Positions 1 to 34,303 of a stretch of DNA of 35,789 nt are shown here, piece after piece. The notes beneath the pieces were generated by a model, which had not been told where the DNA came from, made no database searches, and was given only the letters and a program-made list of their open reading frames with translations. Both the position numbers and the translations under genes were made by a program. This DNA is from Catajapyx aquilonaris (taxonomy: Eukaryota). Where the stretch lies: assembly GCA_000934665.2 (NCBI GenBank), contig KZ539038.1:1-35789 (forward strand), given 5' to 3'. Position 1 is the stretch's first letter; every line of letters starts with the position of its first letter.

Positions 1-450
1 ACGATGTCGCCGTGGGTTACCGAACTGGCAGTCAGCGCGGCGCTGCCAGATCGTCGCTTTCTTCGTGCGAGTTGTTATTGTTCATGGAGAGGGGTATTTT
101 CGATCCCAAAGTTTGGCCAAACCAAGACTGCCACACTCGTGCCCTTTCACACACTTACGGTAATTCGCCGTAAAAACCTCGTGACAGGCTCGAATCTCAC
201 TGGTACCGACATGGAAAGGAGTGATTGCGGGTCAAAATAAAAAACTGCATCTGGCCGCGGCGGCCGCAAATATCGCCCCAGGAGAAAAATAAGCGCACCA
301 TCTCAAAGTGCAACCCTTTCGCGTCCAGATACTCCAGTTTCATGCCGATACCTCCATATTTGCGGCGCGAGAGGAAGAAGTGTCAAACTCACGGGCCGGC
401 CCGCGACGGGCTACCCGCAACAATGAATAGCGTAGCCTAGAGCGCGCTCT
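1..450 (+). promoter_or_regulatory. CpG-rich 5' region (promoter/first exon of eIF4G)
   Basis: Dense CpG compared with the TpG/CpA-rich gene body. Contains a splice donor at 160. Confidence 0.55.
84..159 (+). CDS. eIF4G: Putative first coding exon E1 of eIF4G (MERGIFDPKVWPNQDCHTRALSHTY)
   Basis: ATG at 84, open to donor ACG|GTAATT (phase 1). In frame with acceptor 2500 and ATG 2529. Lies in CpG-rich DNA. Confidence 0.5.
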
Positions 451-1326
451 TAAGGTGATGAAACAACAACAACAAAAAATCCCCAGGATAAAGGTCGGGT
501 GATGCAAAATGGTGATGCCAGGCTGAGCCTTAATGGATTCATGAAGGGATCACATTTTGTAGATGTCATGGAGGTTAAGGCCCGTGTGACAACAGATCTA
601 GAGGGGGTTCCCAAGGTAAATTTTCCTGTTTTCAGAAGCTTTATGAATGTTTTCAAATGTGTGTTGTCTGATGGAGGGAACTTTGAATGCCAATAAAGGT
701 CATTCCTATGTACCTTCTGCTTTGTTGCTTTTATTGTAACATTCACCGAACGTTTCAGACACACCACGAATGTTGACTTGGTTTGCTTTGCATATAGACC
801 TGGTCTACATGGGTGCTGTGCAAGTGCACCAAAGTGAGCTCGTTCAAGAATAATTCCAGAACAGACCTAGTTTTATCAATGTTGTGTGAGTGGCTCCTGT
901 TATTGCATGGACTTCCGGGTGATGAGTTGTATTACACACCATTACATTTATAACTATTGCTGTGTGGTCTCATGAAGGTGAAATGTGAGGGATAAGATGC
1001 TAAAGCGAATCTTGGATAAATATTTAATGTTTATGAAGTGAATCCCTTTGCAATTCATATGGAAACCTGGGTGAATCCCGTATGGTTTTGTTGAAATGTC
1101 AACCCCTAGGTGAAGTGCTATATTAGGATATAGTGCATGGGCTCTGTCTTCCTTACTGGTACCTAGGATGTCCTAGAATTCTCTCCTTTAAATTGCATAA
1201 GTATTTTTAACCTTGCCAACTAGAAAATCCTTACATGAAGCTTGCTGGGAAAGGACAGTAGTGCATGAGGATTAGGGCAATCAGTCTGAAAAAAAATTTA
1301 CGATTTGCTATGGCTGCCATAGCAAA

Positions 1327-8500: not shown

Positions 8501-11500
8501 TCCTGATCATTGTAGCCAATGATCAACAACTATTCATTGGAATCTTGCCTCTGATTTGCATATTAAAATTCAAGCTACTATTATAGCATTTAATTTAAAA
8601 AAATACTTTGTAAAACTACTGAACACAAAAAATTATATTAAGGCCTGTGAGAAATCCCAGATCTTAAAAATACTGCTACGTAACATTTTGTAATTGGTAT
8701 TTCATAATTAGCTTTGGTAGGGTGTATGCTTGATTGGTTTTATCTGTTAATGACATTACTTAATGACAACTACATGCTGAACTTGTGGCATTTGAAGTTA
8801 AGTGCCTTGTAGTGTTACTTTCTTTTTTGCTTCTGCAAGTCAGTTCAATATTAAGAGTTGTCTGGGTTTAATACTTGTTCTAATGTCAACTAAGGAACCT
8901 GAGGGACTAGTGAAAGGCCCAAATGCACATGGGGAAGCGGTTTGGTAACTTCCTGCCAAAAGACCTTGCAGCTTTCACACATGAAGAGATTGTGAATTAA
9001 ATTATGATAAAATTTTATCCACGCGTGTTTTACTGCGAAGGTGGAAGCTTCACTATTTATCACTGGCACCTTTGGTTCACAGGTGTCAATTTATCCTGTA
9101 CTTCATCAAGTTCCTACTGCAACTGGTAGTGCACCAATGTATATCCACAGTAGCCAGCTGCCACTGCAGGTGAGTTGTAGCTACTGTCCCAGGGATTATA
9201 CAGTACATTTCTGTTGGTTTGCGCTGCCTCTCCCCACCCCAGCCCTTCCTTCACCTTTCCCTTTCGTACCCACCTGTGGAATGATATAACCTTCTGGGAA
9301 TTCAGTTCAGGAGCCACGCCCAACAAGAATATATATTTTTTATGTATCCCCCACTACCCCAATGCCTCTTCACCCTCCCTCCCATCTTAACCCACTTTTC
9401 TTGAAGGGAGCTGGTGTGATATCTTTTTCAACTTGCTGACCTTCCATCAGTGCAGATTGAACGTGTGGCATGATCCGTCTGTTTCAGTTCCAACATCAGC
9501 CCCGGCCGGCCCAGCCGAACAGCTTCTACCCTGCAGGCACTCAGCAGCAGATTTTTATGCCTGCCGCCCAAGTCTACTCTTCCTTTTCAACGCAGCCCCC
9601 TTCTCAGGGGACTCAGTGTGAGTAGCAGCCATTTTTTTATTGCATGTTCCCCCCACCCCCCACCCCCTCACATGCTCCATACCTCCCACCTGCACAACCA
9701 TCAGTGGGAACAGCTGTTGGACTGGATGGTTGATTAGTGGCAGTATTGTGCATTTTGTTGCTTGCCACTGAAGACCTAGGAACCATAGGACTTCAATCTG
9801 AACCACTGAAGTGTGCTGGTTTGTTGTAATTAATTAATTAATTAAGTTTTTGCATATAACCATATGTGAGTCTTTTCATTTATTAATGAATGAACTTGTG
9901 ACTGATGTAGCAACTTAGGGAACCCGAGTTCTTGCTGACTTGAAATTGGTGGCAAGTGAGGTTAAATTTCAGATCAGTTGCATATGCTTGTGTGTGTTTG
10001 AATCATATTTGTACTCATAATTATCGCTAACTTGTGATTGGGGAGGACCCTTGACATGCATTAGGACAGGGGTGCACACCAATCTGGGATGTTGAGCTAT
10101 GTTTTGATGAGCCTGTTACAAATCTGGGCAGTGTTTTCACCCCAGTTAGGAATTTTGCATGTCCACCCTTCAATTATTATTTTATTGCACATTGATAACC
10201 TTGATGAAAAGGGGAAGGCTCACAGGGGAGGGCACTCCTGGGTAGGTTTCCAGTCCTTTTGGACCACTAGTAATGCCAGACTTGCCCTGCCAGTGGAGTT
10301 GTTATAAGAACAGAAAAAGACCCTACCAAGTGAAGGCAACTGGATGGGTTTTGAACAAAGGACCTCCTGCTTGACTGGCGGGTGGCATAATCAGTAGACC
10401 ACTGTGTGCCCCAGATACTTTAAATTGTTGGAGGTGACTTCACTTGATGCAGAGTTTTCATCTGCAGAAAATATGTGTGCACTGAGTGAGCTACTCCAGT
10501 GCAATTGCAGAGTGAATTGCAGTTAATAATTTTATTACCATGTTTCTACTTCCAATGTTTTCTTCTCTTGCCCCTCAGTTTACATGCATCAGCAGCAGCA
10601 GCAGGGCTTTGCACCCATTGCCCCCCGCATGCCTGGCCCAGCTCCTGTTGCTCAACCTCCACCACCTCAAAAGAAGCGGAAGAATGCACTGGAAATTATT
10701 GACCCAAATACTGGAAGGAATATCCTGGCTGACATGGTGACTGGGGAGGGGGGAAGCTCCAGCACCACCCCTCCTAGATCGGGGGATAGCAGCGCTCGAG
10801 CTTCTCCTCCGACTGTGAGTGACGTAGGTTCTTTGGTTATTTTTTACTTCCTCCATTAATCTAGAATTTTGGTGGGTTGGAAGCATTTATAATTACCACT
10901 GAAGCGGTTAAGTGGGATAATTAAGCCGAGATCACAATGTAAATTATCACCATTGGCATTTAAGAAGTGTATCGTAACAGTCACGAGTATCTTTAATCTG
11001 TGGTGTTGCATGTAACCAAGTTGACTTGTTGGAAAGACTGTCAGTGTTGAGATTGTGACAAGTGATGTTGGTGTAATTTAAAGAATCATGTATGAGATGA
11101 GTTAGTCATTTAACTGCATGGCTAAATCCACTTGGGCAGAAGGCACTTCAGGAAACAGGTGAACTTCCATTCTGTTATATAATTAAAGGATGTGTGGGTA
11201 TTGCAGAGTGGTGTCGGAGCTTCCAGGGAGGCCAGTGCTGTGGCCCTTGAGTTTGCAGCCAAGGTGGCAAAAGCAGCAGCAGATGAGGATATAGCCAACA
11301 ATGCCAAGGATAGCGAAGTGTCGGCCAATCAAAGCCACAACATAGGTAGCAAAGTTACTGCCATTAGTGAGAATAATAATAAACCGAGTGGTGGTGAACA
11401 ACCACAGCCGGAAGTGAGTAAAGAAGTGAAAAACTCATGGAACCAATCTTTAGTGCAGAGCGACTCTAGGACTAGGGTTGGGGAGAAGGACAATGACGTG

Positions 11501-12918
11501 ACAGTAGCTGCAGTTGCGATAGGTGGCAGGAGCCAGCAGAGTGTTACGGCTGTGCAGAGAGATGAGGAGGTGGAGGAAGAAGAGGAGGAAGATATGGATG
11601 AAGAAGAGGAGGAGGAGGAGGAAGATGAGGAGGAGGAGGAGGAAGAAGAAGAGGAAGAGGATGACGAGGAGGAGGAGGTGCAAGTGTCAGCGGTGTCAGA
11701 ATCAGCAGTTCAGGAAAGGCCCTCTGTGTCACCTGAGACCCAGCCTTCTTCCATGCCTCCTGCACCTGTTGAGGTGGCGGCCCATCCAAAGCCGCCAGTG
11801 CCACCACCGCAGCAGCAGCATCCCCTTCCCCCCCACCCACAGCATTCCCATCATCCTCCACACCACTTGCACATGCAGCCGCCACCTCAAATGCAACCCC
11901 CACAGATTGTCCAGGTGCCTCTCCAACGGATGCCTGGTCAGCACTCCCAAATTCCCCCACAGCTGGCAATGCAGCATATGGCTATGCATCACATACAGCA
12001 GCATCAGCATCAGCAACAGCAGCAGCAGCATCAGCAGCATCAGCAACAGCAACAACAACAGCAAAGGCTGCCTATGCATCATCAACATCAAGGAGGGCCC
12101 CCCCCACATTCAGGGGGACACCCACTTCAACCCCAACACCAGCAAATGGGGCACCCAGGGCACTTGTCTCTGTCTCATCATGTGGGCCAACCTCACCCTG
12201 GACAAGCCCCAGGGCAGGCCATGGGTCCACGCCATCCTATGCTGCCCCCTCGCCCCCTGCTTGAGCTGGAGGTGCACAAACCGCCAGGCATGAAGGATGT
12301 ACCTCCTGGTCGGATGATGCACGAACAGCATGGTCCTCCTCCACACCAGCGCCAGCAGCAGCAGCAACAGCACCACCATCACCAGCAAATGCAACGACAT
12401 CATCCACCTCAAATGCAGCTTGGCAAGCCACCCATGCCGATGATGTCTCAGCAGCAGCCACCCCCGATGCCAACCCTGCCCTCACAGGGCCCACCTGGCA
12501 AGCCTGATCAACGCTACTTCCAATTGGAGGATCGGAATGTGCCAGGGGTTCCCAGGCCGGGGCCTGCCCCACCTGCTGGTGCCACCAATAAGATGCAGCC
12601 TCCTCTTCTTCCAGGCCCTGTGCCAGTAGGGATGACACCCACCCCGCCCCAGACCCAAGCTCCCCCACCACAACCTCAGGCTGCTCCTCCTCCTCCTGCC
12701 CCAGTCCCAGTCCCAGCCCCAGCCCCTGCCCTTGCCCCTGCCCCTGTGCCAGCCCCTGCCCCTGCCCCTGCCCCTCCCCTTGCCCCTGCCCCTCCCCAGC
12801 TGTCTGCACCAGCTCCAGAAAAGAAGATACAACACCCACTACTACCTCTTCCAACCCCAGTCATGGCCCCAGCGGTTGTGTCTGCTCCTGTGCCTGCTGC
12901 CCCTCCAGCTGCTCCAGT

Positions 12919-12950
<32 letters not shown>

Positions 12951-14966
12951 CACCAGCACAACCAGCACAAGCTCCGCCGATGGTTACTGCACCACCAGTT
13001 GCTGCCCCTGCTGCAGCTAAGGAAGAACCTGAGGCTCCACTGCCGGTTGAGGCAGCGAAAAAGGTGGACGAGCCCCAGCAGAATGGGGAGGTCACTAGTC
13101 CAGAAGGCACTGAAGGTAGGATGCGTTGGCATTTAAGCTTTCCTGACACTGTCAATTTCCCCACCAATTCTGGCAGAAATTTGTTGCAAAGTAGCAATGG
13201 AAGTGATCTTTTCACATTTTAGGCAGCGGCTTGAGGACAAGTTACCACTTAATATTCTCAAGGTCGAATTTTATGCCTAATGTTATGTGACAGAGTTATG
13301 TAACATCAGAGTGATTTGGAATGGAAGTCTACCTTGAAAATATGAGATTACTGTGATGTGGGATGGGAGCAGTGCAGAGCATGCTAATTTATCCATTGCA
13401 GTAGGGAAGTTGGTCACACTGTCAATTGCGTGCTGGTAGGTTAGGGGCTGCTATTCAGTATTTTAATTTCCAGATGGGGTTGTCTAGGACCAGGGTGTTT
13501 GCATTATTCCCAGTGCATGCCAATAGGAAAAAGAGCCCAGAGGCCGATTGGGCAAAATTAGAGGTTGCATCATTTCTGCCTCTGCGGTTTCGTTTGTCAC
13601 TGTTCGTTTGTCACTGCCCGTGATAGTGGGCCTCTGATCAAGTGAAGGGTGCGGAAGGGTGTGACTCTTGTTGTGTAGTAAGCCAGTGTGCTTGGGGAAT
13701 GGAAGGCCTCTCCTGTGGAGTAAGATGCATCTGGTGGCCACTCTCTAGACTGGCTGGCTGGGTGTAGCTGGAAGGCAGGGTGGCTCACCCCAGTAACCCT
13801 GGCTGAGGGTCAAGGCTGCCTCTCCTGGGGCCCTCATGGGTATCGCCTTCTGCATTCTTGGCTGGGGAGACCAGCAATTTTTACAATTTCTTATGCGGTT
13901 ATTTCACTTTCATATGCATTGGGGCCAGTAATAAGGAAGTTGATACAGTAGCACCTCCAGTAGGCCGTTAGGAACGGGGTAATTTCAGTGTGGTTTTGAG
14001 AATGTTACAAAAATGAGGCTTGCGGAATTTATTCATTAGGAGTTTTTCATCCAGGTTGTCACTTTTGCTGTAGAATGTTTGCATTCCTGTGCGAAAAGGA
14101 CTGAGTTAAAAAATTACTTTTGGGCCGTTACTCCAATGCATAAAAGTGCATCAGCCTGTTGTGTAAAACTATGGTTTTGTAATGCCTTTTGTACTTAGTA
14201 AAGTAATTACACATACACCGTGGCAACAAACTGTTACATTAGGTACAAGTACATCAGAAATCATATCAGCAGAATAGAAAAACAGATGATTGTTAGGGTA
14301 ATCTAGCACACATATCGGCATTAGCAGTTACTGAAGTGGCTGATAATTCTCTGTTGACATGAATTGCACATTGTGCTCTGGGCTCATTATTATGAGCCAT
14401 GCAGCGCATAATGGTTGCACTCTCGATTGGCCACAGTGATCATATTGATGTAAACTCTCATTAGGGGTTTGACGGCTGCTGAACATGGACAGGATGGGGA
14501 GGTGGGTGGTGTGGTGGAGAATTTATTATTCGAATCATGGTGAATAATTGGGGTCAACAGGATGAGGGGTGTAATATTATAACAGTGCATCATATGCAGT
14601 AAAGGCTGTAAAGTTGGAGTATACCAGAAAGGGGTTAAGGGGGGAGATGGGACAGTCTGTGGGTGGGTGGGGGGGTTTGTACTTATCACAGCTGGATGGA
14701 TAAAATGCCCATGGATCGAGTAGAGGTAAAGGTCGCGCCGAAGCCGATAAATACCAGTCTGGTTCAAGGCAACCATCCGAGGAGGATATGAATTATTGTG
14801 CAGTGAGTACAGCCGAGGGTTTGAATTCTTGGACTTGTAAAGTGTGCTTGTGGCTCACAGGAAGCGGCTATTATGCGGCTGTATGCCAGCTGCTTAGATC
14901 TCTCTTCAAAGCAGAATGGGCTCTTTGGTTATATAGTAGCCAGGAAAAATAACTGTTGCACCACAC

Positions 14967-15011
<45 letters not shown>

Positions 15012-18000
15012 ACCTTGGAGGAACTGCTTTCCAATCTGCCTGAGATTAGTGCACTTGATCAGATCTGCCCCGGTGGGGATTTGGTGCTTGGTGCACGTGC
15101 TTTTTGCCATGGCGATTATTCGGGGCGCGGTGGAAATATCTAGAGCGGGTTATTGCGACAGAGGAGTTGTACCGTGTGTTTCAGAATTTAGCTTACGGCC
15201 GTATCGGTAATAATTTGGCGCATACTGAAATGGCCTTTAATTATTTTAAAAAAATTTACTGTAAAATGACTGCAGGTGAAGCTAGCACGGTATATACGGT
15301 TGTCAGTCATTGATGTGGCAGTGAAAGTTCGTCCCGTTTGACGCATCTGTTGTCCATAACCGCCGGGAAAGGTCTTGGAGGAATTTGGAAAGGGAATGCA
15401 ATCCCCCCCCCCCCCCCCCCCCCCCNNNNNNNNNNNNNNNNNNNNNNNNNNNNNNNNNNNNNNNNNNNNNNNNNNNNNNNNNNNAACCCCCCCCCCCCCC
15501 CCCCCGGCTGGGCAAGGTTGTGAAAGTAGGGTGTTTTCGAAGAAGGGGGGGTCAGGTTTTGAGAGATTTTTACAGCCCCCTCCTTGAGCTTGAAGAAGGA
15601 AGTACCGCCAGTGGAGTCCACTTTTACAATTCCTGTTCCGCAAGAACGGACCCGCGATTATGGGAGAGACGTACTTTGGGGGGAGTGAAGGACGTTTGCT
15701 ATATGCCCTTGTTGGGGCTGCATGAATGGTATGGACAATGCGATATTTCAAAAAAAAAAAAAGAAGAGGTGAATGGATGCCCCCTCGTCATAGCACCGGG
15801 AGCAGATCTATTTTTAGTTAGACTGATCCGCTGGGCAGCGGAACTGTTCACGTCCTGACTGATTTGCTGGCAACGTCCGGCAACCTTTTATCGGCGGATT
15901 ACGGGGCTCGTAATATTCCTCGGAAGACGGTACATGCGAACATGCCCGAATTTAAGCACCGACATTTTAGTAGTTAGCAGACGATTTTCCCCCCCCTCCC
16001 GTTGGCGTAATTAATGGCAGCCCGAGCGATAACATTTCACATCCCATCTTCTCTACCGAAACGACCTTTTCTCGGGAGATGCCAGAGTGGGTGGTGGTGG
16101 TGTATGGGAGGAGGGATGCTTGCGCAAGGTTGCGACAGATGGACCCTCACTGTATGGTATCTTATTCTGCGCGTCATTCCCGCTGCAAAAAACCGGCCGT
16201 CCGAGAGATGACCACGTGACTTGCACCTGGCAACTCCGCCCCCGTTATCCACGTGGGCATGCATGCAAGGGAAGGACGACCCGCTCCTTTTTTTTTTATT
16301 TAAATTATTTGTAATGTACGGGGCGCCCGTCTTTTTAAAAATAAAACCGGCTCGGTTTGAGGCGCCACCTCCCTAAGACGATGTGAATGGAGAGAGATGG
16401 AGAGGGTTCGGGATGCTGGGAAGAGAGGGCGCCTGTACGACTCCCACGGTGGAGCCATGTTGTGTCCTTAGATGCTTCTGGTTGAGGAAAGAGGAGTGAC
16501 CATGGCGGGACTGTGTTGAGGTGTGCTCAGGAAACATGGACCCGGGTCCGAGCGGGGGGCAGAGGGCCCAGATGGGCCGGACGGTCAATGGGAAAGGTGA
16601 GGATTTGCAAAATTGGGGTTGGAGAGAGATGGGGAGGGATGTGGAGGATATATGGTGGGGTGTGGAATGGGAGGGGGGGGAAGTTCAGATGGGGTGGTGA
16701 ACCTGGCCTTAAATGGCATGGGATAGGTTGTCACATGACGTGATGCTGGGGGTTAGAGGCCAGTGTGATGGACTGGATCCATATGCATGAAATGACCTGT
16801 TGAATGCAGGGCTCTCTCTCCCCCCTTTTTTTTGAGGGCATGGCTTTTTTCCTCGCCTTCTAAAGGGGGGGATACCTCTTGATGGGGGGCGCTAGAGAAA
16901 GGAGTTGCCCGAGTGCAAGTTGGGAGCTAAAAATACTGTGCCTTGAGACAAGGTCTATTTTTGATGGTGGAGAGGCTTGGGGGGGCCCCAGTGGCAGGCT
17001 TTGCAAGCAGAGGATATCCTGTGCACATATTGGATAGATGAGATGCTATTGCAGTGCATGCCAATAATGGCATGGGAAGTGGGACAGGAGGCGATTGTCT
17101 GAACTGTCTTGAGGACAAGTAAAAAAATGTTCAAGACTAAAAAAAAGCGTGATGTTTTCCATATCAGAATCCTTTCAGCATTGAGAAAAGGAAACATTTT
17201 GGATTTAATATGCTCATTAAATTATTAACTTTTTACCAACTGAAGCTCAGCCACTTGATTTAAGATACGACTAGGATACCTCAATTAAAAATACCTAATG
17301 GGAAGGGAGAGGTTATGCCACATAATAATTGTTTACAAGTGAAATGATGTTGCAATAAGGTGGCATTGTAATGAAGCAGTGCTGATGCTGAAATGTGACA
17401 GGTGGCATGAATAATTAATGATGTCTCTTGTGCTGTTGCGTGGCATGCGCCAGCTGTTTAGTCTTGCAACCTGGTGAGGCCCAGGAGGCATTTGCATTTG
17501 AACTGGGATATGTAGATAAGTCTTCGACCCTGAATGCACTTCTCTTATTCTTGGGTTGGGTGTCTGTCCTCTTACAGTGAAGGCTTCCCAGCGGCAAAAG
17601 CCAAAACGCAGCCAGAAGAATCGGGAGTTGAATAGGAAAGGCGCTGAGAGGGAAGGGTCGGAACTGGATGCGTTCTATGACCCAACGGAAATGACCCCTC
17701 CTGTTCAGCAGCCAGTGGCTCCTGCCTCAGTTGCAGGGAAGGTGGCACCCCCTCCTCCTCCGCCCAACTCCACCTCTGCCCAGCAGCCGGCAAATTCTGC
17801 CCCTGTGGAGGATGAGGTTAACTCAAAGGAAAGTGGGGATGAAGAGGACCACCACCGCGTCGCTGTTCGTAATGAGGAGAATGCAGCCAAAGGTAGCCAA
17901 GTAGCAGAGGAAACTTCCGTTGAAGAGAAGAGTAGTAGTGCTGTGATAGATACCACTGCCCCTGCAGTCAAACCTGTCACGCAGCTGAAGCACAGCTATG

Positions 18001-27000: not shown

Positions 27001-28872
27001 CCCAAGAAGGTCAGTGAACTCTGGCGTTCAGCTGGCCTCAAATGGACAGTTTTTGTCGCAGAGGGAGAAGTTTCCCAGTTTGTCTCCCAGAATCAGTTGG
27101 AGTATGTGACTGGGGATGGCCCTGCCCTTCCTTCCTCACCTGGAATCTCGATGCCTGCCGTCAAGGCAAAGCTGGACGAGATGCTTCAGAAAGATGACCA
27201 CACTGATCACATCTTTGATTGGATAGATGTGAGTTTTGAAACTGCCCATTTTTCAACACACGAATCCGACAATTACATTGCATGGGTGAGCACAGTTGCA
27301 TTAAAACTGAAAACTTATTTTGATTGATTGACAAGACCAATTATGCTGCAGTGCATGAATGGATCTGTAGCTATAAAATCGTGTGAGAGCTGTCATTGCA
27401 GCTGTGCTCATTCTGCATACTCAAGTTGCTTTTGAGTGCAATGATGATGAGAAAATTGAACATACATTTGTGATGAGTTTCTCTAAAAGCTCAACAGGAC
27501 TGATTTGCACACTTGATAGATGTGAAACCCTCATCTAAAAGCCATGTCAGTGGTTTTTAATCAGTGGTTTACTTCTCAGGTGAATGTTGGTAACAAGACA
27601 AAGGATCCTCAGTTTGTACGTGCCTTGATGACGTCTGTCTGTGAACATATAATTAATGGTCAGTGTTCATATTCTTATGGCAAGTCTGTGAATGGGGGAG
27701 CATGTTGTGATTGTGTGGTCTTATTCTCTATTCAGCGCAAGCGCAGACCCCTGTAAGGGACAGGATGAAGCAGTACACAAACCTGCTGCAGCGGTACCTT
27801 GACCACAATGACCAGCTGGAGCTTCAGAGTCTGTATGCCCTTCAAGCCCTTATGCACAGGTTGCAGCCGCCAGCTGGTGAGTTTAAATTGTGTTTATTGC
27901 GTTGTTAATGTAAATTGTCATCATCCGAACAGTCGTGTTGTAATGAAAGGGAGCTATGATGGTTTATTTGGAAGAAGCCAAAGGAGCTATGATGACTTAT
28001 GGAAAGTTTTATTTGGCTGGAAATCAGCTGACCGGCAAATTTTTTTCCATAAATACGTAATATTGCAAGGATCTAGCTCCCCTTAGGACTCAAAAGTCCA
28101 ACATTTTAAATGGAATATGACTGTTTGCTGTGCAGAGAGACTCCTAAGACTGATTTTTTATACCTTCTTCTCAATCATTCGTATTTTAGCTGATAGAATG
28201 AGATCATACTGTAAGAGTTGACACGAGGTCTCAGATAAAGAAATTGCAGTAAAACCCCAATTATCTGTCACCCATGGGGACTGGGGCATTGTTGTATAAC
28301 AGAAAAGGTCGGATAATCCCAAGAGTAAAGGAAACACAACAAAAAGTGTAAAAAACCATGAAAGGTGTACAATATTACGCTTTTCTAAGAAATAGTGAAA
28401 TATTTATCATTTACGTACACACCACTGTTTAAAATTTAACTGAGGCAATACAAATGAAATGATTAGTAGGCCTGCATTACAGTATTTGATGAGAAAACAT
28501 GTTTATTGCTGGACCGGGACCCTCTGATGATAATCCGAGGTCGGTTAAACAGGGTTCCACTGTACTGGATAATTATGGGAATTAAAAACTAGAAAAGTGA
28601 GATTTTTCAAATGAAACTGGAGGAGGTACCTAGTTATTGTAAGATGAAGGTTAAGGACATTAACTGAATTTTTTATTCCTCCTTCAACAGGAGTTCTTGG
28701 CCAGATTTTTGAAGCCCTTTATGATGAGGAGGTAGTGTCGGAAGATGCCTTCAAACAGTGGGAGCAGAGCACTGATCCTGCCGAACAAGAAGGCAAGGGT
28801 GTTGCCCTCCTGTCAGTCACACAATTTTTCGTCTGGCTGAAGGAAACTGAAGAGGATGATGAGGACTCTTGA
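2529..28872 (+). CDS. eIF4G: Eukaryotic translation initiation factor 4 gamma (eIF4G1/3-like), spliced CDS of 20 exons (E2-E21), 2008 aa from ATG 2529
   Basis: Manually joined exons 2529-2582, 3311-3424, 9083-9169, 9488-9617, 10579-10814, 11207-13115, 17578-18006, 18634-18773, 19627-19716, 19789-19965, 20041-20178, 20613-21476, 24059-24452, 24802-25228, 26307-26386, 26481-26605, 26998-27228, 27580-27658, 27736-27876, 28691-28872. All phases are compatible and the total is 6027 nt. eIF4G motifs occur in the expected order: PABP site, YxxxxLL, MIF4G, MA3, W2. Confidence 0.95.
3311..3424 (+). CDS. eIF4G: eIF4G exon E3 ([20 protein letters not shown]...)
   Basis: Acceptor cccacgcag, donor CAG|GTAGTG, 38 codons, phase 0/0. 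P/Q-rich composition like eIF4G N-termini. Confidence 0.75.
4261..4528 (-). mobile_element. Second copy of the Helitron-like family
   Basis: Same CTAG/hairpin terminus in reverse, (GACA)n, and shared internal sequence with 1327-1613. Confidence 0.75.
5250..6345. mobile_element. Older fold-back element interrupted by the 5284-5968 MITE
   Basis: Long imperfect inverted repeat between ~6000-6120 and ~6180-6300. Outer matches at 5251-5278 and 6317-6343. Confidence 0.6.
5284..5968. mobile_element. pogo/Tigger-like MITE with long TIRs
   Basis: TA|CAGTACCCTGCATTAATGGCCATGCACAGACACCGCCA, with its inverse ending at 5968|TA. Confidence 0.9.
6770..6984. mobile_element. hAT-type MITE
   Basis: TIRs CAGTAGTTCCAACCT / AGGTTGGGAACCACTG with a perfect 8-bp TSD GAGTAGAC. 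Confidence 0.9.
7396..7465. repeat. AT-rich (TA)n-like microsatellite
   Basis: tatattatatatata arrays. Confidence 0.8.
9083..9169 (+). CDS. eIF4G: eIF4G exon E4 ([29 protein letters not shown])
   Basis: AG acceptor and GTGAGT donor, 29 codons. Confidence 0.8.
9488..9617 (+). CDS. eIF4G: eIF4G exon E5 ([21 protein letters not shown]...)
   Basis: Acceptor tgtttcag, donor GTGAGT, phase 0/1. Confidence 0.85.
10200..10411 (-). mobile_element. Degenerate tRNA-derived SINE
   Basis: Minus strand begins gggcacacagtggtctactg...gtcctttgttcaaaaccc, with decayed A/B boxes. Confidence 0.4.
10579..10814 (+). CDS. eIF4G: eIF4G exon E6, PABP-binding motif
   Basis: [25 protein letters not shown] resembles the human eIF4G1 PABP site [26 protein letters not shown]. 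Canonical splice sites. Confidence 0.92.
11207..13115 (+). CDS. eIF4G: eIF4G exon E7, 1909-nt low-complexity exon (acidic, Q/H/P/M-rich, PA repeats)
   Basis: 676-aa ORF. Acceptor ttgcag and donor G|GTAGGA, with phases matching E6 and E8. Confidence 0.9.
14967..15008. repeat. (CA)n(GA)n microsatellite
   Basis: Seen directly. Confidence 0.95.
15403..15505. other. Poly-C tract spanning an assembly gap (N at 15426-15484)
   Basis: Seen directly. Confidence 0.98.
17578..18006 (+). CDS. eIF4G: eIF4G exon E8
   Basis: [18 protein letters not shown] resembles the conserved KELNKKE..DLLDAF segment. Boundaries cttacag and GTGAGT. Confidence 0.92.
18634..18773 (+). CDS. eIF4G: eIF4G exon E9, eIF4E-binding motif YGRDFLL (18672-18692)
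   Basis: [23 protein letters not shown] contains the canonical YxxxxL-hydrophobic motif. This exon is too short to appear in the ORF track. Confidence 0.95.
19627..19716 (+). CDS. eIF4G: eIF4G exon E10 (DFTPNYA motif)
   Basis: 90 nt, boundaries tttcag and GTGAGT. DFTP motif conserved in eIF4G. Confidence 0.9.
19789..19965 (+). CDS. eIF4G: eIF4G exon E11 ([12 protein letters not shown])
   Basis: Conserved pre-MIF4G AWKP motif. Canonical splice sites. Confidence 0.93.
20041..20178 (+). CDS. eIF4G: eIF4G exon E12, start of MIF4G domain
   Basis: [18 protein letters not shown]...[11 protein letters not shown]. Confidence 0.96.
20613..21476 (+). CDS. eIF4G: eIF4G exon E13, rest of MIF4G domain and Gly-rich linker
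   Basis: [54 protein letters not shown]. Confidence 0.97.
24059..24452 (+). CDS. eIF4G: eIF4G exon E14, linker
   Basis: QLGPGG..SWMKGS and TNRFLAL match eIF4G linker motifs. Phase 0/1. Confidence 0.92.
24802..25228 (+). CDS. eIF4G: eIF4G exon E15, start of MA3 domain
   Basis: [24 protein letters not shown]. Phase 1/2. Confidence 0.92.
25503..25854 (-). mobile_element. tRNA-derived SINE with (TTA)n tail
   Basis: A box TGGCGCTGCGG and B-box-like GGTTGGATCCC on the minus strand, (TAA)n at 25501-25528, and a 15-bp TSD GAGAAAAGCTCTGTA (25488-25502, 25855-25869). Confidence 0.88.
26307..26386 (+). CDS. eIF4G: eIF4G exon E16 (MA3)
   Basis: [23 protein letters not shown]. Confidence 0.93.
26481..26605 (+). 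CDS. eIF4G: eIF4G exon E17, ends at a GC donor
   Basis: [21 protein letters not shown]... The frame is kept by AAG|GCAAGT. Confidence 0.88.
26998..27228 (+). CDS. eIF4G: eIF4G exon E18
   Basis: [16 protein letters not shown]...IFDWID. Confidence 0.93.
27436..27510 (+). ncRNA. Intronic box C/D snoRNA, predicted 28S rRNA 2'-O-methylation guide
   Basis: Box C ATGATGA at 27441, C' GTGATGA at 27470, box D CTGA at 27500, terminal stem GTGCAA/TTGCAC. Guide AAGCTCAACAGG (27487-27498) is complementary to conserved LSU CCUGUUGAGCUU. Ends about 70 nt before the 3' splice site. Confidence 0.85.
27580..27658 (+). CDS. eIF4G: eIF4G exon E19 (W2 region)
   Basis: [12 protein letters not shown]. Confidence 0.93.
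27736..27876 (+). CDS. eIF4G: eIF4G exon E20 (W2)
   Basis: [18 protein letters not shown]. Confidence 0.93.
28247..28562. mobile_element. Degenerate CAGT...ACTG (pogo-like) MITE
   Basis: cagtaaaacccc...gggttccactg|ta, with subterminal gataatcc motifs. Confidence 0.55.
28691..28872 (+). CDS. eIF4G: eIF4G terminal coding exon E21 (W2, Mnk-binding end)
   Basis: [18 protein letters not shown]...[26 protein letters not shown]. Confidence 0.96.
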
Positions 28873-31590: not shown

Positions 31591-34303
31591 ATTTGGTAAG
31601 ATTGTCTAGGATTGCAAGCGCGATGGATTCGTTGATTGTGGTTGGAGGGACACCATTTCAAAGAGTGCCATGCTGCATTAACGTGATTGTAAGGCAGAGT
31701 CTGTGTACATGTAGAGATCATTTGTTCTATTGCATTGACAACGTGAACTGGGAGTGGGTTGCATATTTATTGCAAGGAAGAAAATTGCATGCATTTGACA
31801 GTAACGTCAAAAGGCCGTACGTCTAGTTGTTGTAGCAACTCGTGAGGTAGTTTCTGTCATTAACTTCGTGCTTTTTCACATTATGCTGATGGATGAAATA
31901 TTCCACGTTGCTTTTTTCAGCCAAGGGTACCTGAGACAAGACCCTTGAACATGACTACACTGAGGTTTGCTGACTTTACGCCAAACTCTGCAATGTCCCC
32001 TGCACCTCGGGTGAGTTAGTTGGACGTGGTCTAAACCAAGGTCTAAACTCTAAAGAGTTGGAATGTGAATGGCAAAGAATAACGGAGAATGTTTTCTGCA
32101 GATGCTTCCGAAGAGGAACAACCAGGAAGGAAGGGTGAAGGCTCCCAAAGTGCGGCCCAGCCCCAGCTTGCAACAGGAGGAGGAAGTAAAACTTCATGAG
32201 GCTGAGAATGCATGGAAACCTAACTTCAAGATAAGCATAAGCAAAAAGGAGCTGACCGAAAAAGAGACCATGTCAGAGGTAATGATGGTGACTCAAGGGG
32301 TGAAGAATTTTTGTTTCCTGTGCATGTTATAACTTGGGATTTTTGTGCAGGAGCTGTACAAGAAGGTTCGGGGCATCTTGAACAAGCTGACTCCTCAGAT
32401 GTTTGAAATTCTGGTGGGCCAGGTCCAGGAGCTGCCCATTGACAACCAAGAAAGACTGAAAGGAGTCATGGAGCTTGTGTTTGAACAAGTACTGTATCTA
32501 TCATTCATAACATACGGGTCATTCCCACATGCCACAAAATCTCGATCTTCAACCATGATTCTGAGGGGCAAAATCGGGATCGTTTGGTGACTGTTCCCAC
32601 CAGCCACGTACTTTTCACGATTTTCGGTAGATGGGTCTGGAAGCATGCCCTCCTGCCTGGCGAAAAAATGACTCGATTCGGCTCATGGCCAAACGCATGG
32701 GTGTCTCTACGATGGGCTTGGCTGTAATAGCAACGAGGCATGCTATCCATGTTATTGCACATGTCCTGGCTGCCCGCAGAGCGAGGGACCAGATGGGACC
32801 AAGCAGACAGCCGCCATGTTACTCGGCTAAGATCCGGTCTGGAGGGGGAGTGACATCAAGACCAAGACTGGAAACCTGGCAGCCAGCATCTACAAGCTGT
32901 TTCGCCGAATCACCTTTGTAAATCAAAATGCGTTCGGGTGGAGGGAGGGCATGTGGGAACAGCCCAAGATCGATTTTCGGGGGTATTAATCGAATCATGG
33001 TCCCTGTGGCATGTGGGAATGGCCCTGTTGGTGCAGAATTGGTTGGACAACAAAGGATTGTGTCACATTCCTGCCCCTTTTGTGAATGTCAGTGTCAGTA
33101 TCGAGAAGGCCGCACTTGTGCCTATGAGGTTCTGTCATTAGGGGATGCAGGTCATGAGCTGGCTTCTTGTATAATACTGGTAAGAGGCAGTACTTCAGAA
33201 GATGCATATATTCAAGGTGGTGGCTTTACTGGATTTTTAAAAAATTTATCTTTTGGATATATCCACTAATCACTTGCCAGCAATGTCTGCAGGATCTTAT
33301 GTCATAGACAGCAGATCTAATTTCTTCAAAAAGTAAAGAATTGCACCAATGGCTTTTGATAATTAATTAGTAACACTTTTGTAACTTTATGTTGAATAAA
33401 TTTTTATAGGCGCTTCATGATCCAGCCTTCTCTGTGGCATATGCCAAGATGTGCAAGACCATGGCCATGATCCAAGTGCCAGTAGATGAAGGCAGAAATA
33501 AGTGTGTGAACTTCCGCAGGTTGCTGCTTCTCCGCTGCCAGAATGAGTTTGAGAAGGACTGGACAGACGAGCTGCGCAGCTTGAGAACCAAGGAAATAGA
33601 ACCCACTCCCTCGGAGGAGAAGCGCAAAGAGATGCAGGTGGCACTTGATGAAGAGGAGCGTCGCCTTCGGAAGCGTTCTCTGGGCAACATTCGCTTCATT
33701 GGAGAACTGTACAAGCTGGGCATGCTGACCTCCAAGATCATACACGAGTGCCTGCAAAAACTTATACGTCAGGGGGATGAAGATTCTCTAGAGTGCCTCT
33801 CTCTTCTCCTGTCAACCATTGGGCGGGAAATGGAGAGGGAGATTGTGCAAAAGTCTAAGAACTCTGGCTCCAAGGAGGACATGGGACATTATTTTGCCCA
33901 GATGCAGGCCATAGTTCAGAAGCGGACCACCTCCAGTCGGGTGCGGTTCAAGCTGCAGGATGCCATTGAGTTGCGCAGCTGTAAATGGGTGCCACGTCAT
34001 GATGATATCAACCCCAAGACCATTGACCAGATCCATAAGGAGGCAGAGCGGGAAGCTATTGAACAGACTATTTCACTGCAGCAGGCACCTCCACCTATGC
34101 GGGGAAGGGGTGGAGGTGGTGGGGGAATGGAATACAAGAATAAGGGTGGGATGCCTATGGCAGGTGGCGACCCTGGCATGGGGGAGCATCCGTGGTTCGC
34201 AGCACAGAAGCCTGTCTATACCAGGATATGTGGCATGGATTTTAGCAAACTGACCAAGCATGCCCTGAAGGTCAGTCTCGATGTTTGTCTGATTTTCTCT
34301 CTG
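31591..34303 (+). repeat. Segmental tandem duplicate of 19297-~21507 (introns included)
   Basis: Colinear high similarity from atttggtaagattg onward in both exons and introns, ending about 30 nt after the E13 donor. Confidence 0.97.

Follow-up and report, generated by a model that had tools for sequence, protein, structure and literature searches.

The window, as the term is used here, is the whole stretch of DNA that was analysed: 35,789 nucleotides (nt) of the forward strand of contig KZ539038.1 (positions 1 to 35,789), from the Catajapyx aquilonaris assembly GCA_000934665.2. It contains a gene for the translation initiation factor eIF4G, and one intron of this gene contains, at positions 27436 to 27510 of the forward strand, an element with the anatomy of a box C/D small nucleolar RNA (snoRNA). 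This element is probably a functional, intron-encoded, single-guide box C/D snoRNA gene of approximately 75 nt, which would direct 2′-O-methylation of one G in the ribosomal RNA (rRNA) of the large ribosomal subunit (LSU). A preliminary description, made from the letters of the sequence, had proposed an intronic box C/D snoRNA in a translation-factor gene, with its boxes, a terminal stem of 6 base pairs (bp), a guide of 12 nt and a typical distance to the 3′ splice site. All of these are present in the sequence, and the host can be named as eIF4G, with its MIF4G, MA3 and W2 domains. The features of the element and of its host are:

27436–27441 (+): 5′ half of the terminal stem, GTGCAA; six Watson–Crick pairs with 27505–27510; the corresponding stem shows covariation in the family described below
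27444–27450 (+): box C, ATGATGA; the copy that is aligned to box C of the covariance model of the family (R1)
27456–27459 (+): possible degenerate D′ box, TTGA; the nearest candidate, preceded by a spacer too short for a guide
27470–27476 (+): box C′, GTGATGA; aligns with a C′-like element of family members
27487–27498 (+): D guide, AAGCTCAACAGG; perfect 12-nt complement of LSU rRNA, followed by one A and then by box D
27500–27503 (+): box D, CTGA
27505–27510 (+): 3′ half of the terminal stem, TTGCAC; preceded by one T after box D
27229–27579 (+): host intron of eIF4G, 351 nt, phase 0; donor GTGAGT, acceptor TTCTCAG; flanking exons align in order to the named eIF4G protein P0026
17520–28872 (+): eIF4G gene body as mapped by Pfam hits (MIF4G, MA3, W2) and by tblastn of named eIF4G proteins

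A box C/D snoRNA has a C box (RUGAUGA) and a D box (CUGA), a terminal stem, and a guide of at least 9 bp located 1–2 nt from box D, and each of these is found here. The word ATGATGA occurs in two overlapping copies (27441–27447 and 27444–27450), and with the second copy the kink-turn has canonical geometry, except for one U–U mismatch closing the stem. There are 19 nt between the C and C′ boxes and 10 nt between the C′ box and the guide. The guide forms 12 uninterrupted pairs, starting from position 2 relative to box D; counted upstream from box D, the fifth base is C27495, the partner of the G in CCCT-G-TTGAG, as the preliminary description had read it. Of the internal boxes, C′ is present as GTGATGA, and D′ is represented by TTGA only: no canonical D′ box exists within 27436–27510.

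The exons on either side of the host intron are matched by P0026 in tblastn at window positions 27007–27297 and 27601–27663, the first of these alignments overrunning the end of the exon at 27228 and continuing into the intron. The element is on the sense strand of the gene, with 69 nt between the end of the stem and the 3′ splice site and 76 nt between box D and the next exon. Upstream eIF4G exons probably start near 10530. Among the matches listed, the MIF4G region of this eIF4G has no more than 63% identity to any relative (63% being to an unnamed protein); the closest named relatives are chelicerates, i.e., horseshoe crabs and a scorpion (60–62%), and molluscs, amphioxus and insects have 51–57%. 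These identities mark the gene as that of an animal. Thus, the assumption of the preliminary description that the relatives to be compared are “other insects” is unproven. A partial second copy of the MIF4G exons lies approximately 3 kb downstream of the last exon (32111–32494 and 33401–34087, forward strand). It equals the first copy in its match to named eIF4G proteins, and is therefore a tandem partial duplicate or a pseudogene.

To describe relatives of the element, metagenome contigs were scanned with the pattern TGATGA-N25–55-AGCTCAACAGG-N-CTGA, which yielded 63 hits at 59 loci. When the window is included there are 53 distinct hits, and 31 of these have, where it is expected, a terminal stem of at least 5 bp, compared with 11% when flanks are paired across unrelated hits. 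Eight loci (L043, L052, L058, L063, L066, L070, L078 and L085) were left out before alignment as presumed chance matches: this was a matter of judgement, made because most of them are within open reading frames (ORFs) of 112–284 amino acids on prokaryote-like contigs, their lengths are atypical, and six of the eight have stems of no more than 3 bp. Two of those left out, L052 and L070, have 7-bp stems. The resulting alignment contains 44 distinct sequences plus the window, i.e., 45 rows, and was scored for a stem of seven pairs. Of the stem cells, 72.7% are paired versus 49.5% in column shuffles, and the observed value was reached in none of 500 shuffles; sliding the 3′ partner by 1–3 columns leaves at most 44.4% of the cells paired, and all seven stem pairs have changes on both sides. 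When the 22 positions that the search pattern fixes are disregarded, clustering at 60% identity divides the 44 sequences into 14 clusters, the largest of which has 18 rows. In addition, tandem clusters of two or three copies with the same guide, 300–500 nt apart, were observed at L038/L039 (one contig) and at L086.

The relatives have not only the stem and the boxes in common with the window element, but in a number of cases also the host gene. At 11 of the 59 loci there are eIF4G exons within 400 nt on the same strand; at the other 48 there are none within that distance. The exons were found by searches with all ORFs of the window and with named eIF4G proteins, whereas the short exon peptides of the window eIF4G gave no significant matches to the family loci. 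In three cases (L056, L060 and L084), the exon following the snoRNA is 97% identical to eIF4G of the ants Atta cephalotes and A. colombica. In seven others (L054, L067, L068, L072, L076, L077 and L087), the best matches are Daphnia eIF4G or unnamed proteins recovered together with Daphnia eIF4G; identity to the D. pulex eIF4G P0122 is 99% for L068 and 88% for L077. On two Daphnia-like contigs, successive eIF4G introns separated by small exons each hold a single copy, with three copies on one contig (L076/L077) and two on the other (L067/L068). In L062, the snoRNA is in the last eIF4G intron, before the W2 exon.

Box D and the next exon are separated by 76 nt in the window, by 71 nt in L056 and in L084, 75 nt in L060, 91 nt in L062, 76 nt in L067 and 79 nt in L077b. 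Hirose and Steitz reportedly described such a range as optimal for the processing of intronic C/D snoRNAs. The window element has all the features by which the family can be defined: the C box, the guide and D box in the form AGCTCAACAGG-N-CTGA, the covarying stem, and a position on the sense strand of an eIF4G intron, approximately 70–90 nt before the next exon. The metagenomic copies in eIF4G resemble it in guide and D box, C box, covarying stem, host and distance to the exon; they differ in being located in other introns, in occurring two or three times on the Daphnia-like contigs, and in sequence, with no more than 42% identity outside the fixed positions. The preliminary description had suggested looking for the boxes and the guide in the orthologous intron of other insects; the boxes, the guide (fixed by the search pattern) and the host gene recur in metagenomic ant-like and Daphnia-like eIF4G, in introns other than that of the window. 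The proposal that the guide could be lineage-specific is not supported: the same guide and D box, the C box and covarying stems recur in 14 clusters, including Atta-like and Daphnia-like eIF4G introns.

The family appears not to have been catalogued. The preliminary description had pointed out that an Rfam match would confirm the RNA and at the same time remove its novelty. The whole window has no match to Rfam 15 at gathering score, nor have 20 representative loci of the 59. A permissive scan of 27380–27560 gave 33 matches with E up to 10, of which 28 are to C/D families, on the forward strand and spanning the element, the best scoring 18.7 bits versus a threshold of 45. Since these matches are weak, mostly of C/D type, and never at gathering score, the element can be described as having the generic look of a C/D snoRNA, outside the curated families. 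SNORD66 and SnoR29-like families are absent from the 33 matches. Among the full texts searchable, the papers listed for Daphnia or crustacean snoRNAs and for insect snoRNA catalogues had nothing on the family, the supplements of other snoRNA catalogues lying outside that search and being places that could hold it. A search of the literature for the guide sequence together with snoRNA returned only its use as a quantitative PCR primer. It is credible, judging from the sequences, that the element belongs to an uncatalogued family of animal C/D snoRNAs hosted by eIF4G and found at least in an ant and in cladocerans.

The complement of the guide is CCTGTTGAGCTT and its target in LSU rRNA is CCUGUUGAGCUU, in which the base to be modified is the G of CCCU-G-UUGAG, which we take to be the equivalent of G2067 of E. 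coli 23S rRNA. The 21-nt target motif is present verbatim in all 29 of the ribosomal DNA (rDNA) stretches that were retrieved, and each of the seven stretches scanned matches eukaryotic LSU rRNA (RF02543). Three rDNA stretches from contaminant contigs in bacterial assemblies, recognized by Rfam as eukaryotic small-subunit, 5.8S and LSU rRNA, served as proxy rRNAs; two of them were checked for the 12-mer target, and each contains it once. Eukaryotic rDNA, some of it with group I introns, is also what was retrieved as L001–L029, in assemblies labelled as bacteria or archaea, i.e., as contamination of the records. A second rRNA guide, associated with D′, was not found: the 5′ spacers of the 45 rows, the window included, have only scattered matches of 7–10 nt to the three proxies, which are fungal or protist. 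Possibly, a D′ target may lie in an animal-specific region of rRNA that is beyond the reach of such proxies.

The accessible part of Table S4 of Sklias et al. (2024; PMC11014333) includes a row for a site at position 2788 of Drosophila 28S, 3913 of human 28S, 2409 of yeast 25S, 2410 of Arabidopsis 25S and 2675 of Dictyostelium 26S rRNA. We infer that the row refers to the G of CCCU-G-UUGAG, because Arabidopsis U2411 directly follows that G, and Arabidopsis U2422 (yeast U2421, human U3925) is 12 nt downstream of it. The numbering as approximately G2409 of yeast, given in the preliminary description, was right, since the row places the site at yeast 25S 2409. In that part of the table, methylation at the site is recorded for Arabidopsis only, and for none of yeast, human, mouse, Xenopus, Drosophila and Dictyostelium. 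Thus, the statement that the site was not known to be methylated in yeast or human holds, as far as the table goes, but the site is not a new one: a 2′-O-methylated G (Gm) is recorded at this position in the green lineage, and there only, for Arabidopsis, tomato, tobacco and an alga. Arabidopsis Gm2410 had been found without an assigned guide (PMC8583080), and was later assigned to the D′ guide of SnoR29: according to the accessible text of PMC8053127, a T-DNA insertion mutant of SnoR29.2 has lower methylation. A review table gives Gm2412 for tomato and tobacco and Gm2252 for an alga, and leaves human and yeast blank (PMC11542601). For Drosophila, the accessible part of Table 1 has no site between Gm2774 and Gm3152, and the supplement, to the same extent, has no mention of eIF4G, G2787 or G2788. 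Searches of the literature for Gm2409, G2409, Gm3913, 28S-G3913, Gm2788 or Gm2675 together with snoRNA found no relevant paper among those searchable. Human Gm3899 was considered as a related site and rejected, as the tables equate it with Arabidopsis Gm2396, which is a different G.

The element can be compared to known snoRNAs. Arabidopsis SnoR29, which according to the accessible sources guides 25S Gm2392, Gm2410 and Um2411, addresses the same target nucleotide (Arabidopsis G2410, yeast 2409). In SnoR29, as there described, G2410 is read by a D′ guide beside a degenerate D′ box and G2392 by the D guide, whereas the window element would read the site with its D guide and shows no second guide. 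The combination of a D′ guide to G2410 with a D guide to G2392, by which SnoR29 is recognized, is thus not seen in the window element. The host context also differs, that of the window being an intron of an animal eIF4G gene; the two are set apart by guide layout, not by sequence comparison. Human SNORD66 is likewise an intronic C/D snoRNA, within an intron of EIF4G1, but it guides 18S C1272 (PMC7072173), unlike the window element.

If the element functions as such genes generally do, the host intron would be spliced out and then debranched. Snu13/15.5K, Nop56, Nop58 and fibrillarin would bind the kink-turn formed by the C and D boxes together with the terminal stem, and exonucleases would trim the flanks. 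In the resulting small nucleolar ribonucleoprotein (snoRNP), the 12-nt guide would pair with pre-28S rRNA at CCUGUUGAGCUU, and fibrillarin would 2′-O-methylate the G opposite the fifth base of the guide. The modified G would be a few nt 3′ of the stretch of domain V equivalent to A2058–A2062. The anatomy of the sequence, its place in an intron, the conservation of the family and the covariation of the stem are seen directly; expression, snoRNP assembly and methylation are inferred from established snoRNP biology.

How readily such an arrangement arises by chance can be estimated within the window. C box…D box pairs were counted at spacings of 40–140 nt on both strands of the 35.8 kb, with 300 dinucleotide shuffles as the null. 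There are nine pairs in the window, of which three loci have a stem of at least 6 bp; the shuffles have a mean of 0.023 pairs with such a stem, one being present in 7 of the 300 and two in none. A 12-nt complement to the proxy rRNAs is located just upstream of 2 of the 308 CTGA sites, where arithmetic predicts approximately 0.8, and of these two sites only that of the snoRNA candidate combines the complement with a C box and a stem. It is very improbable, therefore, that the element consists of short motifs brought together by chance in an AT-rich intron. Such a coincidence would be in keeping with the one guide-like complement expected beside some CTGA in a window of this size (there is one at 14479), and with the two other C/D-like loci, which have no rRNA guide; it is opposed by the rarity of a C box combined with a 6-bp stem, by a conserved family with covarying stems, and by a host gene common to ants and Daphnia-like contigs. 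Nor do the family hits look like artefacts derived from rDNA, an origin opposed by the eIF4G exons that flank them. It is also improbable, if somewhat less so, that the element is a decayed or silent copy of a snoRNA, having kept its boxes on account of a recent origin and giving no stable RNA. In favour of a silent copy, the element occurs once in the window, and its intron differs from those of the other eIF4G-hosted copies; but its boxes, 6-bp stem and full guide are intact, it is as far from the 3′ splice site as other family members are, and its host gene is intact and has the same orientation. Both of these explanations are much less likely than the one that follows.

The main rival to a methylation guide, although an unlikely one, is a genuine snoRNA pairing with 28S rRNA near the peptidyl transferase centre without methylating it, acting as a folding chaperone or being effectively an orphan. 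Yeast snR190 provides the model: it is a C/D snoRNA complementary to the same part of domain V, with a predicted site at G2395, 14 nt upstream of G2409. This predicted site is reportedly unmethylated, and snR190 is proposed to act as a chaperone; to our knowledge, it does not come from an intron of a translation-factor gene. The guide of the window element is within the same stretch of domain V, and is invariant across the clusters, but this invariance is imposed by the search pattern. What argues for methylation rather than pairing alone is that 12 uninterrupted pairs extend to position 2 before a canonical D box, a geometry associated in Arabidopsis with detected methylation (of 104 assigned sites, 100 are paired over at least 9 bp, according to the accessible text of PMC8053127), and that the same G is methylated by means of a snoRNA in plants.

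Several points weigh against the element being a functional methylation guide of this family. None of the animals mapped to date (human, mouse, Xenopus, Drosophila) has a recorded methylation at the target G, which is equally what the pairing-only explanation would predict. The predicted target depends on conservation of the motif in eukaryotes other than this species. The covariance model R1, built from the 44 metagenome rows, matches the window only at 27435–27513, with 52.1 bits (next best, 12.4 bits), but this score is largely circular because the set was retrieved with the guide and boxes of the window itself. For the same reason 22 positions, the guide included, are identical by construction of the search pattern, and outside these the window has only 42% identity to its nearest family member. 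The intron that it occupies is not that of the ant, Daphnia-like or L062 copies. Finally, the fold energy is not better than that of shuffled sequences (z = 0.02), which is usual for C/D snoRNAs and adds no support. Taking these points together with the anatomy, the shared host and the covarying stem, a functional C/D snoRNA that methylates the target G is still the probable explanation.

The chances seem evenly balanced that this is an old, at least pan-arthropod family (ant, cladoceran and the window species), which has stayed in eIF4G across different introns and which installs a Gm by the peptidyl transferase centre and tunnel entrance, with vertebrates and Drosophila unmodified, and plants using an unrelated guide arrangement. 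If this were true, it would represent a convergent or anciently shared modification of the ribosome that is coupled to expression of a translation initiation factor. Ribose methylation of rRNA has been mapped in very few animals, and none of these has the mark at the target G. The presence of the guide in ants, Daphnia-like crustaceans and the window species predicts an animal site of ribose methylation (Nm) beside the catalytic centre that is invisible in model organisms. As Drosophila is without the site, this would be a clear case in which to test how ribosome modifications are gained and lost; it would also exemplify a snoRNA that keeps one host gene while changing introns. In kind, the element is a textbook one, an incremental addition to a well-understood class without any new mechanism: the novelty lies in the family, in its attachment to a single host gene, and in the predicted animal Nm site, which plants share by way of a guide in a different arrangement.

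The other C/D-like loci of the window, mentioned above, can be described briefly. A second element with this appearance is present at 447–535 (+), with GTGATGA, CTGA (523–526) and a 6-bp stem (TTAAGG/CCTTAA). It has no complement of at least 10 nt to the proxy rRNAs and no weak Rfam matches to C/D families, and could be an orphan snoRNA or a chance arrangement. At 12110–12181 (−), ATGATGA…CTGA with the stem CCCACA/TGTGGG is antisense within an eIF4G coding exon rich in His, Gln and Pro; it has no rRNA guide against the proxies, and the motif is probably a by-product of repetitive codons. At 14479 (+), a CTGA follows a 12-nt complement to the proxy rRNAs (GTTTGACGGCTG) without C box or stem, which fits the approximately 0.8 sites expected by chance.

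Two repeats occur in the introns downstream of the host intron. The next intron contains, at 27950–28000 (+), a tandemly duplicated GGAGCTATGATG(G/A) element with words resembling the C box, and contigs of run X1 span 27925–27991. The last intron contains a repeat at 28296–28520 (+) that is matched by many run X1 contigs at 90–95% identity and looks like a dispersed repeat family. Run X1 matched the window at these two places only, with no contig on the snoRNA, a result that is uninformative as to its expression. Further upstream, at approximately 15400–15460, a run of 59 N between a run of G and a run of C marks an assembly gap.

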